A DNA stretch of 64,000 nt from Eledone cirrhosa. Lineage: Eukaryota. The notes beneath the pieces are model-generated. The model was given only the letters and a program-made list of their open reading frames with translations. It did not search any database and was not told the DNA's origin. The stretch lies in NCBI GenBank assembly GCA_964016885.1, contig OZ024764.1, positions 13,082,001 to 13,146,000 on the forward strand, in the 5' to 3' direction. Position 1 is the stretch's first letter, and each line of letters opens with the position of its first letter. Shown here in pieces: positions 6,529-13,242 of the stretch. Position numbers and translations under genes: made by a program.

Positions 6529-8250
6529 CCAGGCCTGAGTACAGCAAATTTCTTCCAGAGAAAGACAAAGAATGGAAGACTAGAAATGAGAAAGAGATAT
6601 AAAGGAAGAATCAACCCCAGTATTAGACTGGTACTTTTATATCAACCTTAATGGATGAAAAGCAAAGTCTACCTCAGCGGGATTTGAACTCAGACCAGGC
6701 CTGAGTACAGCAAATTCTTCCAGAGAAAGACAAAGAGTGGAAGACTAGAAATGAGAAAGAGATATAAAGAATCAACCCCCCAGTATTAGACTGGTACTTT
6801 TATATCAACCTTAATGGATGAAAAGCAAAGTCTACCTCAGCGGGATTTGAACTCAGACCAGGCCTGAGTACAGCAAATTCTTCCAGAGAAAGACAAAGAG
6901 TGGAAGACTAGAAATGAGAAAGAGATATAAAGAATCAACCCCCAGTATTAGACTGGTACTTTTATATCAACCTTAATGGATGAAAAGCAAAGTCTACCTC
7001 AGCGGGATTTGAACTCAGACCAGGCCTGAGTACAACAGATTTCTTCCAGAGAAAGACAAAGAGTGGAAGACTAGAAATGAGAAAGAGATATAAAGGAAGA
7101 ATCAACCCCCAGTATTAGACTGGTACTTTTATATCAACCTTAATGGATGAAAAGCAAAATCTACCTCAGCGGGATTTGAACTCAGACCAGGCCTGAGTAC
7201 AGCAAATTCTTCCAGAGAAAGACAAAGAGTGGAAGACTAGAAATGAGAAAGAGATATAAAGAATCAACCCCCAGTATTAGACTGGTACTTTTATATCAAC
7301 CTTAATGGATGAAAAGCAAAGTCTACCTCAGCGGGATTTGAACTCAGACCAGGCCTGAGTACAACAGATTTCTTCCAGAGAAAGACAAAGAGTGGAAGAC
7401 GAGAAATGAGAAAGAGATATAAAGGAAGAATAAACCCCAGTATTAGACTGGTACTTTTATATCAACCATAATGGATGAAAAGCAAAGTCTACCTCAGCGG
7501 GATTTGAACTCAGACCAGGCCTGAGTACAACAGATTTCTTCCAGAGAAAGACAAAGAGTGGAAGACTAGAAATGAGAAAGAGATATAAAGGAAGAATCAA
7601 CCCCCAGTATTAGACTGGTACTTTTATATCAACCTTAATGGATGAAAAGCAAAATCTACCTCAGCGGGATTTGAACTCAGACCAGGCCTGAGTACAGCAA
7701 ATTCTTCCAGAGAAAGACAAAGAGTGGAAGACTAGAAATGAGAAAGAGATATAAAGAATCAACCCCCAGTATTAGACTGGTACTTTTATATCAACCTTAA
7801 TGGATGAAAAGCAAAGTCTACCTCAGCGGGATTTGAACTCAGACCAGGCCTGAGTACAGCAAATTTCTTCCAGAGAAAGACAAAGAGTGGAAGACTAGAA
7901 ATGAGAAAGAGATATAAAGGAAGAATCAACCCCCAGTATTAGACTGGTACTTTTATATCAACCTTAATGGATGAAAAGCAAAGTCTACCTCAGCGGGATT
8001 TGAACTCAGACCAGGCCTGAGTACAACAGATTTCTTCCAGAGAAAGACAAAGAGTGGAAGACTAGAAATGAGAAAGAGATATAAAGGAAGAATCAACCCC
8101 CAGTATTAGACTGGTACTTTTATATCAACCTTAATAGATGAAAAGCAAAGTCTACCTCAGCGAGATTTGAACTCAGAGAGCTGGAACAACTATGGCAAAG
8201 GATTCTATTCAATGTTCTAACAACTCTGCCAAATTGCTGCCACTTGTACA
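6529..8250 (-). repeat. ~165-bp tandem array (~10 copies) of a SINE body plus flank, ending in the SINE head
   Basis: ccaggcctgagtac recurs at ~6529, 6695, 6858, 7020 and on to 8011. The unit includes ccccagtattagactggtactttt...gggatttgaactcag. Single-copy relatives lie at 58010-58360. Confidence 0.9.
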
Positions 8251-8354
8251 TATACTGTCTTTAATATTCTAATGTAGATTAATAAATTGAACTAACTTAA
8301 TCTGCTTATAAAGGATTATCTGCTTTCGTTTGTCATAGCATCTTGTAACACTCA

Positions 8355-9050
<696 letters not shown>

Positions 9051-9179
9051 ATATGTGAATATAGACATAGAATATTCGAAAATATTCTGTATGTTTATAA
9101 TAAACATTTTGAAGACCTAATCGCTATAGAATAGAATACGTCACGTATTACAATTAGATTCTCGATAAAAGCAAGGGAA

Positions 9180-9222
9180 GTAATCTACGCGTTTCATTCT
9201 CGTTAGAAATCATCAGGACTAC
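9180..9222 (-). ncRNA. Minimal type-I hammerhead ribozyme
   Basis: Minus strand: GTAGTC CTGATGA tTTCTaacgAGAAt GAAAC gc GTA GATTAC. Stem I has one G-U pair and the core is intact. Confidence 0.8.
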
Positions 9223-9692
9223 ATATCCAGTGCTTTTATCGAGAATGACACAGCTAGAGACTTATAGAATACTTAGCTGTGTACAGGAACTGGTTTGAAA
9301 GAGCGGTTGCCGGTCCGGCAGAAATTAGAAATTGGAATAAATGCTCTGAAATAGCGATATATATGTGAATATAGACATAGAATATTCGAAAATATTCTGT
9401 ATGTTTATAATAAACATTTTGAAGACCTACTTGCTTTTATCGAGAATCTAATTGTAATACGTGACGTATTCTATTCTATAGCGATTAGGTCTTCAAAATG
9501 TTTATTATAAACATACAGAATATTTTCGAATATTCTATGTCTATATTCACATATATATCGCTATTTCAGAGCATTTATTCCAATTTCTAATTTCTGCCGG
9601 ACCGGCAACCGCTCTTTCAAACCAGTTCCTGTACACAGCTAAGTATTCTATAAGTCTCTAGCTGTGTCATTCTCGATAAAAGCACTGGATAT

Positions 9693-9735
9693 GTAATCCT
9701 GATGATTTCTAACGAGAATGAAACGCGTAGATTAC
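9693..9735 (+). ncRNA. Minimal type-I hammerhead ribozyme
   Basis: GTAATC CTGATGA tTTCTaacgAGAAt GAAAC gc GTA GATTAC: 6-bp stem I, CUGAUGA and GAAA core, palindromic stem III ACGCGT, GUA cleavage triplet. Confidence 0.85.
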
Positions 9736-9912
9736 TTCCCTTGCTTTTATCGAGAATCTAATTGTAATACGTGACGTATTCTATTCTATAGCGATTAGGT
9801 CTTCAAAATGTTTATTATAAACATACAGAATATTTTCGAATATTCTATGTCTATATTCACATATATATCGCTATTTCAGAGCATTTATTCCAATATATAT
9901 ATATATATATAT

Positions 9913-10548
9913 ATGGAAAGAATGAAACCAAATTTCATTTCTCACTCTTAGTACGGCTGTTAATTAAATATAGGTATGTATACATACATACATATATGTA
10001 TACAGACGTACAGTAGTATGTATCTATATACATACATGCATACATATATATATATATATGTACATATGGGTTTATCGAACATTTATTATAATGTTCGGTG
10101 TGTTTGTAAACAAACATCCCGGATTAAGCCGTACAGTGTCTAGCAACCATCGTTGCCCTTTTGTTCAACACTGACAAAGGAATGATGTACTAGTTTCAAG
10201 CTTATTAGCTATCGTCAGCATCGTATACCTTCCTGTCAGATGATTGAACGTCTGAAAGTATATACTTTCCCCTATGCATATTAACGGCTGAGCAGCCTAA
10301 TTTGCATATCGAGTGAGTTAGTCGGCCGGGCGCACCGAAAATGATAAATGGAAAGAATGAAACGAAATTTCATTTCTCACTCTTAGTACGGCTGTTACTT
10401 AAATATTAGTATGTATACATACATACATATATGTATACAGACGTACAGTAGTATGTATATATATATATACATACATGCACACATATATATATGTACGTAT
10501 GGGTTTATCGAACATTTATTATAATGCTCGGTTTGTTTGTAAACAAGA
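9913..10548 (-). mobile_element. Second Penelope-like/retrozyme-like element: ~435-bp period with ~200-bp direct repeats
   Basis: atggaaagaatgaaac... at 9913 and 10348. Flanked by (TA)n on the left and contains a hammerhead. Confidence 0.7.
10184..10222 (-). ncRNA. Minimal type-I hammerhead ribozyme (different family)
   Basis: Minus strand: GATG CTGACGA tAGCTaataAGCTt GAAAC ta GTA CATC, with palindromic stem III ACTAGT. Confidence 0.8.
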
Positions 10549-10689
10549 TTGAAAATCTGCCAACTTTTTCTTAAAGCACTCCACGGTTTTTGTTCATCTG
10601 GAGTTTTATTATAATAGTAAACAAGAAAGACGATATATTTACTTATGTATATAATATATGTTCGTTACTGTGGAAGATAGACGTTAAAC

Positions 10690-10728
<39 letters not shown>

Positions 10729-10789
10729 ACAAGATGGCTGCAAACTCTGTTAAGAATATTGCAATCGCTTGTTAGATTTATAGAAAATG

Positions 10790-11075
10790 GTGCACTTTTA
10801 GGCTACGGCCAGCCACACGAACCTGTAACATATCCTGAACAAGCAATGTCTGTGATTTGAAGGTTTTTTTAAGTGGGGTAAGGCCTTGCACTCGACCAAT
10901 CCCACCCTCAGAGCATCGAAAACACTACCCGAAAAGGAGAACTGGTCAACATCATCGGATGCTTCCCAAGCTGCGGGGTTTTTTTTCAGAGTTGCCAGTT
11001 TAGTCGCCGACAACCCGACCATGAGACAGGTTGTACTGGGTTACATGTCACCAGTAGTACTCGAGGGCAACCTAA
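10790..11075 (+). mobile_element. Unclassified dispersed repeat
   Basis: gttgccagtttagtcgccgacaacccgaccatgagacaggttgtactgggttacatg is also present inverted at ~60085-60170. Confidence 0.65.
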
Positions 11076-11528: not shown

Positions 11529-12244
11529 TATTCATATATATATATGTGTGTGTGTGTGTGCGCGCCTGTGTATATCTAGTCTTTAATGCGAAGAAATACC
11601 AATGATAATCAGCAGACTACTGATGATGGACATTCCAGTTTCTCGGTCTATTTTCATGCATATGTTTATATTCGCAACAACGCAGCACGCCATTTTTCAT
11701 TCATATATATACATATATATATAAGGATCAAAGAGATAAAGACATAAGAGACACCCACTGCAACAACCACCCCACTTCACAGGGCACCCTCCTCAATCGG
11801 ATCGCCATCTTTCCGACTTTACGAGGACCAAGGACACCAAATGTATTGCCAGGCCCCGGTATTTAACTTATAATTAATTAATTGTTTCTACTTTGGGCAC
11901 AAGGGCAGCAATGACCCAGTGCATTACTGGTACTTTATTTTATCGACCCCGGAAGGATGAAAGGCAAAGTTAACCTCGGTGGGATTTGAACTCAGATCAT
12001 ACAGGGAGGTAACTCTATGCTTCAAAGCATGGCATCCGACCCTCTACCGATACTGCCATTAATTAATGTAATTAAATTTTAAAGAATTAATTTCACATGA
12101 TAAATATACAGTAATGGGTTTTAAAGAAAGGTAACTGCGGTAAAGTTTATACAAAAGTTGCCTCCCTTAACAAAAATTTCTTTCAGGGGAAATAATCGAG
12201 TATTGCCTTAAAAGAACATTTCAATTAAATTCGCTTATATATAT

Positions 12245-13160
12245 TACAGAGTGTACTGGGTGTATTTAATCATGGCATTAGCACTACCACTTTACAGAGT
12301 GTACTGGGTGTATTTAATTCATGGCATTAGCTCTACCACTTTACAGAGTGTACTGGGTGTATTTAATCATGGCATTAGCTCTACCACTTTACAGAGTGTA
12401 CTGGGTGTATTTAATCATGGCATTAGCACTACCACTTTACAGAGTGTACTGGGTGTATTTAATCATGGCATTAGCACTACCACTTTACAGAGTGCACTGG
12501 GTGTATTTAATCATGGCATTAGCACTACCACTTTACAGAGTGTACTGGGTGTATTTAATCATGGCATTAGCACTACCACTTTACAGAGTGTACTGGGTGT
12601 ATTTAATCATGGCATTAGCTCTACCACTTTACAGAGTGTACTGGGTGTATTTAATCATGGCATTAGCACTACCACTTTACAGAGTGTACTGGGTGTATTT
12701 AATCATGACACCAGCATTACCACTTTACAGAGTGTACTGGGTGTACTTTTTCATGGTACCAACACTACCACTTTACAGAGTGTACTGGGTGTATTTAATC
12801 ACAACACCAGCACTACCACTTTACAGAGTGTACTGGGTGTATTTTTTCATGGTACCAACACTACCACTTTACAGAGTGTACTGGGTGTATTTAATCATGG
12901 CATTAGCACTACCACTTTACAGAGTGTACTGGGTGTATTTAATCATGACACCAGCATTACCACTTTACAGAGTGTACTGGGTGTACTTTTTCATGGTACC
13001 AACACTACCACTTTACAGAGTGTACTGGGTGTATTTAATCACAACACCAGCACTACCACTTTACAGAGTGTACTGGGTTTATTTTTTCATGGTACCAACA
13101 CTACCACTTTACAGAGTGTACTGGGTGTATTTTATCACAGCACCAGTATTACCACTTAAC
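12245..13160 (+). repeat. 48-bp minisatellite (~19 copies), variant of the 49-bp family
   Basis: Unit ccactttacagagtgtactgggtgtatttaatcatggcattagcacta, with ordered variant units at the 3' end. Confidence 0.95.
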
Positions 13161-13242
13161 AGAATGTATAAAGGGTATTTTACCATACCAACAGTACTAC
13201 TTGATATCTTTATTTACATTAATAATAATAATAATAATAATT

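Follow-up and report, generated by a model that had tools for sequence, protein, structure and literature searches.

The window, that is, the whole stretch of 64,000 nucleotides that was analysed, contains two related hammerhead-bearing elements, here called E1 and E2, with 3' ends that lie in the same (TA)n tract. The features of this region are as follows.

8966-9054, no strand: (TA)n tract, left remnant of the target (TRF, 44.5 copies); its last 8 bases are common with E1
9047-9429, minus strand: left arm of E1, inverted, 5'-truncated and tailless, with its 3' end at site 1, the equivalent of 9868 (382/383 match)
9158-9246, minus strand: minus copy of the E1 hammerhead, including the extension of helix I; its core spans 9180-9222 and the predicted cut separates 9186 from 9185; has the majority G
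9430-9558, plus strand: upstream copy in the right arm of E1, 5'-truncated and pseudo-LTR-like (sequence comparison)
9559-9868, plus strand: complete 310-bp unit of E1, which closes on itself
9669-9757, plus strand: E1 hammerhead, plus copy; core 9693-9735, predicted cut after 9729
9766-9874, plus strand: downstream module of E1, a 6-bp hairpin (9766-9780) and an 8-bp long-range helix (9788-9795/9867-9874)
9869-9894, plus strand: 26-bp tail of E1, at the right end alone; equal to the first 26 bp of a next unit, stopping at site 2
9893-9914, no strand: (TA)n tract separating the 3' ends of E1 and E2
9915-10546, minus strand: E2, a diverged relative made up of a 435-bp unit preceded by a 5'-truncated copy at 10344-10546; its 3' end lies in the TA tract that also borders E1
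10163-10249, minus strand: E2 hammerhead; core 10184-10222, predicted cut between 10188 and 10187

E1 was made up of a 310-bp non-coding unit of 34% GC, within the range of retrozymes (150-450 bp, <45% GC), arranged in two arms. The right arm (9430-9894, plus strand) held 1.5 units and the left arm (9047-9429, minus strand) 1.24 units, and the two were joined 5'-to-5' at 9429/9430. Exact match comparison showed that 9430-9584 and 9740-9894 were identical at 155 of 155 positions, with a period of 310, and that 9047-9119 and 9357-9429 were identical at 73 of 73. The left arm was the reverse complement of 9486-9868 at 382 of 383 positions (sole mismatch, 9219/9696), giving a palindrome with a 56-bp loop (9430-9485) in which the 3' ends of both arms faced outward into (TA)n. 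At its 3' end, the right arm extended 26 bp beyond the left arm. The outer ends, 9047 and 9894, are not sharp, since their AT letters overlap the (TA)n on either side, and a target-site duplication cannot be read within such a tract. The original prediction had described a unit of ~310 bp in partial tandem fused to an inverted partial tandem, with a single difference between the two ribozyme copies. The exact matches bore out this layout and refined its ends to 9047 and 9894, and the difference proved to be the one at 9219/9696, the only one in 383 bp.

The unit joined its own end to its start (9868 to 9559). The longest ATG frame on the circular unit was 30 codons, no protein was encoded, and there was no long frame for rolling translation of a circle. 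Judged by eye, there was no PLE-like frame (PLE, Penelope-like element) in the unit or among the 80 frames of at least 120 codons in the window. As a linear molecule the unit folded at z = -5.8, with none of 100 shuffles as good. The right arm started 10 nt past the position of the predicted ribozyme cut, for which the chance is ~3% if positions are uniform. This fits a template with a ribozyme-made 5' end, although as one junction, noticed post hoc, it is only suggestive.

The unit of E2 was 36% GC. Its upstream copy matched it at 92% identity across 205 bp; outside a microsatellite, the two differed at 7 of 113 positions. This AT/AC microsatellite has grown inside the long-range helix of E2 (9975-10066), where it forms a long hairpin and explains much of the extra length. 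Alignment of E1 with E2 over most of the unit scored 154.5, compared to a shuffled mean of 100.7, and none of the 300 shuffles scored as high; for the ribozyme region alone and the tail region alone, 1 of 300 shuffles did so in each case. The partial tandem with a 5'-truncated upstream copy was found in both arms of E1 and in E2, the 3' end of E2 lay in TA at a motif homologous to site 2 of E1, and no inverted copy was found at E2. We regard E2 as the older of the two insertions, from a homologous family and at the tract that E1 also occupies. Taking the rate of 0.0036 per million years reported for octopus (PMC13282606), a rough estimate puts the divergence of the E2 repeats at about 8-9 million years and that of the E1 arms at under half a million.

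In both units, the ribozyme was followed by a 6-bp hairpin and then by the 8-bp long-range helix, which began 59 nt (E1) and 54 nt (E2) past the cut. The 3' strand of this helix in E1 starts at site 1, and the layout of the module is common to E2. Read from the alignment, 4 of the 8 pairs of the long-range helix were changed on both sides between E1 and E2. This downstream module may be a signal for the reverse transcriptase. Both units, otherwise AT-rich, also had a short GC-rich hairpin after the tail motif (9595-9607 on the plus strand in E1; ~10322-10338 on the minus strand in E2), possibly a promoter or protein-binding signal.

Elsewhere in the window, an intronless frame at 32595-34559 (plus strand) encoded a thermolysin-type M4 metalloprotease (Pfam Peptidase_M4, M4_C, and a weak FTP match). 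The best named relatives belonged to Argonauta and species of Octopus (identity 59-68%; 6 of 13 matches), and matches in scallops were weaker (36-41%), so the host is probably an octopod. M4 proteases are mainly bacterial, and this frame may belong to an old transferred family in molluscs. A frame of 279 codons at 46701-47540 (plus strand) encoded tandem C2H2 zinc fingers with an 84-bp period. The units of the tandem arrays at 2406-2679, 6529-8177, 13976-14556, 34595-34980, and 35509-35820 look like pieces of one interspersed repeat, which is presumably SINE-like. Minisatellites of 48-49 bp were located at 1-661, 19904-20626, 61055-61872, and 12244-13168, the first three of which look mutually related, in both orientations.

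Structure and type of the hammerhead ribozymes

The E1 hammerhead had a complete core. Its helix I was 6 bp long (9693-9698/9730-9735) and was extended by a UAU/U internal loop, 3 bp, and then 16 perfect bp, which form the outer helix of the plus copy (9669-9684/9742-9757). Helix II had 4 bp and a 4-nt loop, with a U.U closing pair (9706/9719), and helix III was a palindromic hexamer, at 9723-9728 in the plus copy. The E2 hammerhead had the same spacing, U.U pair, 4-bp helix II, and UAU/U loop, but the palindromic hexamer of helix III was different. A descriptor for type-I hammerheads with a palindromic helix III and a helix I of at least 4 bp matched the window at 3 sites but had no match in any of 200 shuffled windows, and the type-I hammerheads originally placed at 9693-9735 (plus strand) and 9180-9222 (minus strand), with a palindromic stem III, were confirmed at those positions. 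The U.U closing pair and the third hammerhead, that of E2, had gone unmentioned.

The 98-nt extended E1 motifs folded at z = -6.2 and -6.3, with none of 200 shuffles as good. The bare 43-nt motifs were no better than shuffles (z = -0.4 and 0.0), and the fold of the E2 ribozyme was weaker than that of the extended E1 motifs (z = -2.2, 4 of 200 shuffles as good). An Rfam search of 8000-11000 gave 45 matches, none of them hammerhead-like, and Rfam gave no hammerhead match on E2. Rfam matches to microRNAs and snoRNAs were dismissed as low-complexity or chance. A search with hammerhead models had been proposed as a check, and its support was weak: with 151 bases of E1 alone, Rfam returned Hammerhead_HH9 (17.5 bits, E 0.044), a score far below the gathering threshold of 52. 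A covariance model of our own, built from two of the three ribozymes in the window, yielded only the three known ribozymes there, with the next match at 10 bits.

Comparison of E1 with E2 showed that 7 of the 15 hammerhead pairs were changed on both sides, 7 were invariant, and 1 was broken in E2, leaving 29 of 30 cells paired. Covariation as high as this was found in 4 of 500 shuffles, and slid controls had 0-2 two-sided changes. With two sequences, from which the structure itself was drawn, these changes are support rather than proof for a conserved fold.

The predicted lowest-energy fold of two copies of E1 was a double hammerhead, at -68.7 kcal/mol compared to 2 x -31.3 kcal/mol, while closing helix III within the monomer is predicted to cost 5.2 kcal/mol. 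The E1 hammerhead therefore probably works as a dimer, as had been suggested from its palindromic stem. The predicted two-copy fold of E2 was not a double hammerhead. A comparable ribozyme is the axolotl HHR_Amex2 of Rtz_353, in which helix III is short and helix II starts from a U.U pair, and for which 22% cleavage per hour as a monomer and far better cleavage as a dimer were reported (PMC7229834). E1 is like HHR_Amex2 in being of type I and in both of these traits; helix III has 2 bp and a tetraloop in HHR_Amex2, and 1 bp and a palindromic tetraloop in E1 unless dimerised. Self-cleavage of E1 cannot be assumed, because only 1 of 9 predicted Xenopus retrozymes was reported to cleave in vitro (bioRxiv 10.64898/2026.07.22.740005).

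The ribozymes had been labelled minimal, which the helices contradict. The minimal hammerheads of PLE pseudo-LTRs are described as type I, with a palindromic helix III and dependence on dimerisation (PMC4209133). In the minimal type, helix II has 7-8 bp and helix I 4-5 bp, loop 1 is poorly defined, position 9 is followed by an additional base, and there is a G10.1-C11.1 pair, whereas in both E1 and E2 helix II has 4 bp, helix I is extended with 6 bp, and the U.U pair is present. By the definitions of that source, the E1 ribozyme is a canonical, retrozyme-type hammerhead and not of the minimal PLE type. E1 also differs from viroid-like circular RNAs, reported to have ribozymes in both polarities (PMC8781251), in that one hammerhead was found per unit by the descriptor, Rfam, and our own model, with other ribozyme classes covered by Rfam only.

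Scanning metagenomes with the E1 core identified at least 94 loci, with hammerheads of the minimal PLE type. A scan of viral sequences with a loose core identified 30 loci. None of the 124 loci listed in the two scans had a BLAST match to E1 at E 0.001, and there was one 48-bp match to E2 (E 6e-4). Among the 94 metagenome loci listed, only 9 frames of at least 250 codons were present, none PLE-like by eye. Our covariance model, run on 40 of the 94 metagenome loci listed and on the 30 viral loci, gave 21 weak matches (18-23 bits), all in metagenome loci and none in viral ones. Degenerate patterns specific for E1 or E2 had 0 matches in the viral and prokaryote collections. The metagenome loci were rejected as relatives of E1, given their minimal type and the lack of BLAST matches to it. 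Two of them (L032 and L075, each at 8001-8240) had two minimal-type hammerheads 200 bp apart and pointing apart, the head-to-head layout of E1 in an unrelated family; in L032, a further inverted pair of similar motifs enclosed this pair.

Copies of the unit in sequencing runs

Twenty of the 24 sequencing runs listed, from 18 coded organisms and 17 studies, held 0.61-0.93 of 28 words sampled from the unit, and no RNA run was among the holder runs listed. Four runs (X1, X9, X10, and X24) were compared with 9559-9894; X24 gave 0 reads in 1,938 million letters, a result that carries no weight as a test. In X1, 642 short contigs matched 9559-9894: 345 were at least 99% alike, 157 were at 95-99%, 100 at 90-95%, and 40 below 90%. 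Depth reached 3,950 for single X1 contigs among those listed, although summed contig depth is not a copy number. These contigs point to a young family with many copies. No run-on into other long sequence was found among the X1 contigs listed, which are short, and the joints listed for X1 did not include the central junction 9429/9430.

Some ends of the X1 contigs resembled those of E1. Among the 6 of 34 loose-end rows listed, (TA)n followed 9868, the position at which the left arm ends, in 10 contigs; near the end of the tail, (TA)n came shortly behind 9883 in 6 contigs and after 9589 in 1, and one row had TA before 9759.

At 9696, G accounted for 424,212 of 452,910 of the summed X1 contig depth (94%), and G was also the letter in X9 and X10. 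Since G is the majority letter, the A of the plus copy is the variant. RNA editing as a source of the A/G difference was rejected as unnecessary, G being the majority. A variant at 9706, at 16% in X1 and fixed in X10, replaces the U.U with an A-U pair, in agreement with the proposed hammerhead fold.

Of the 17 holders other than A, X9 and X10 were compared, and both gave flankless circles. Each consisted of one 340-nt contig that closed on itself with a period of 310, at depths of 13.8 and 34.2. The circles differed by 1 and 3 letters, and all three differences occur among the X1 contigs. The closed circles show only that the end of the unit is joined to its start, and they agree equally well with transfer, with a circular RNA, and with traces of a host rich in the repeat.

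Origin of the insertion and output of the locus

The metazoan non-LTR retrozymes are described as protein-less units of ~300 bp and <45% GC with a canonical type-I hammerhead, for which mobilisation by PLEs was proposed (PMC7229834; bioRxiv 10.64898/2026.07.22.740005). E1 is alike in size, GC content, absence of a protein, and ribozyme. It differs in being a dispersed, inverted insertion of 1.5 and 1.24 units in (TA)n instead of a tandem array, and its host, probably an octopod, is not among the examples given in those papers. Insertions of PLEs are reported to contain partial tandems, often with an inverted, 5'-truncated 5' copy, to have a tail of 30-40 bp at one end, and to be biased toward microsatellites (PMC8557442; PMC3846280). 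Four of these hallmarks were present in E1: the partial tandem, the inverted truncated copy, the one-end tail, and the TA target. The tandem and inverted arrangement, which had been compared to that of Penelope-like elements, is thus the ordinary PLE insertion pattern. Compared to insertions of endonuclease-bearing PLEs, E1 has the same layout but lacks a reverse transcriptase or GIY-YIG frame and has a 26-bp tail. Since there was no reverse transcriptase plus GIY-YIG frame, E1 was not filed as an autonomous PLE.

We therefore consider E1 to be a young insertion of a non-autonomous, protein-less element of the retrozyme type, moved by a TA-targeting, endonuclease-bearing PLE enzyme, with a probability of roughly 0.78. 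The insertion layout, the X1 contigs, and the covariation with E2 agree with the earlier proposal of a young, non-autonomous hammerhead family linked to Penelope-like elements and retrozymes. Against this reading, an autonomous PLE partner was not found among the X1 contigs listed, and the tail is shorter than the reported 30-40 bp. The helper may have been of the Neptune clade, a guess from the reported microsatellite bias and the absence of canonical hammerheads from Naiads.

The insertion would have begun at a source locus elsewhere with several units, from which multimeric or circular RNA was made. In such an RNA, two hammerheads would swap strands via the palindromic helix III and then cut, as in the predicted fold. 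The PLE enzyme would then nick both strands of (TA)n, and each would serve as primer for reverse transcription from an internal site of the RNA, one at 9868 and the other at 9894 (139 and 165 nt past the cut, 26 nt from each other), beside the conserved long-range helix. Purified lizard PLE protein was reported to cut AT-rich DNA on both strands and extend both, with two internal start sites that mark the limits of the tail and no need for ribozyme cleavage (PMC11167929). Double priming in E1 is proposed from the observed ends together with this in vitro work, as are the enzyme and the template. Both copies are longer than one unit, so either the template exceeded a linear monomer in length or the enzyme switched from one template to another; these lengths fit circular or multimeric templates. 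Joining of the copies 5'-to-5' would produce the palindrome with a tail on one side that is seen at the locus.

Other origins differ from this one in the donor or in the way the second arm was made. Most PLE insertions are reported to be 5'-truncated, leaving only terminal repeats (bioRxiv 10.64898/2026.07.22.740005), and Octopus vulgaris to have PLEs with recently active copies (31 families, 336 insertions; PMC13282606), so E1 could consist of stacked end pieces (pseudo-LTRs) of an autonomous PLE with the coding part missing here. However, the tail leads back into the 310-bp unit, whose end meets its start both in the window and in the X9 and X10 circles, the ribozyme is canonical as in retrozymes and not of the minimal PLE type, and none of the X1 contigs, short as they are, run on into sequence unlike the unit, all of which makes this origin improbable. 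The second arm could have arisen from the same template by fold-back self-priming of the first cDNA, as proposed for head-to-head PLE inversions (PMC3846280), which would alter only the double-priming and joining steps. Favoring this are arms that are identical at 382 of 383 positions and a junction match, imperfect, of 4 of 6 bases. This match is weak, however, with a mismatch at the very base that would prime; the left arm halts at the common 3' end of the family with the tail uncopied, and the arms have different letters at a site that is also variable among the X1 contigs. Self-priming is a possible but doubtful source of the palindrome.

The near identity of the arms, together with the lack of a spanning read seen at the central junction, might also suggest an assembly or fold-back read artefact. 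This seems hardly credible for arms that are asymmetric in the manner of PLEs, that differ at an X1-variable site, and whose left end matches the ends in 10 X1 contigs. A wider question is whether a circular RNA or a mobile DNA form of this unit has also moved between unrelated hosts, as the 20 of 24 runs listed, from 18 organisms, with 0.61-0.93 of the sampled words could indicate, along with the flankless closed circles in X9 and X10, both of the holders compared among the 17 other than A. Trace DNA or RNA from a repeat-rich host, through cross-contamination or prey, would assemble alike, however, the three circle differences are all present among the X1 contigs, the coded organisms may be relatives, and only one polarity of the unit contains a hammerhead. 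Such movement is very unlikely; the same holds for its more specific form, in which a 310-nt ribozyme-bearing circular RNA or DNA copy recently spread, with hardly any change, among many hosts and resident PLE enzymes integrated it into TA microsatellites via the helix-and-tail module, for which we see a very slim chance.

Other loci of the family may release the 310-nt monomer or circle that was originally suggested. The E1 locus itself cannot release a monomer or circle, because each strand has one cut site. It also lacks two consecutive ribozyme-bearing units and is by definition not an 'active' retrozyme locus. When either strand is read through, the ribozyme in the transcript is predicted to pair with its antisense copy (~-673 kcal/mol, 94% paired), although the right arm alone keeps helix I in its predicted fold. 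With one ribozyme per strand, and both locked in a 383-bp hairpin on read-through, the locus is a passenger and not a source. Transcription through E1 would instead yield long double-stranded RNA.

Significance for retrozyme mobilisation

Mobilisation of retrozymes by PLEs was already known as a proposal (PMC7229834; bioRxiv 10.64898/2026.07.22.740005). In those papers, the link came from the ribozyme type, tandems, co-occurrence, and pseudo-LTR homology, whereas for E1 it comes from the architecture of the insertion. What E1 adds is the presence of PLE insertion scars on a protein-less unit with a canonical hammerhead; the earlier case for borrowing of PLE enzymes, as presented there, was mainly co-occurrence and repeat homology. 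A search of the literature by title or the start of the abstract did not find an octopod hammerhead element, though repeat libraries may hold the family. If host-to-host movement were true, this would be an animal retrozyme moving between hosts and of much greater interest. E1 and E2 represent two diverged families with a common fold, end motif, and target, making the long-range helix and the tail motif candidate cis signals, which could be tested with a purified PLE enzyme in the assay that already exists (PMC11167929).
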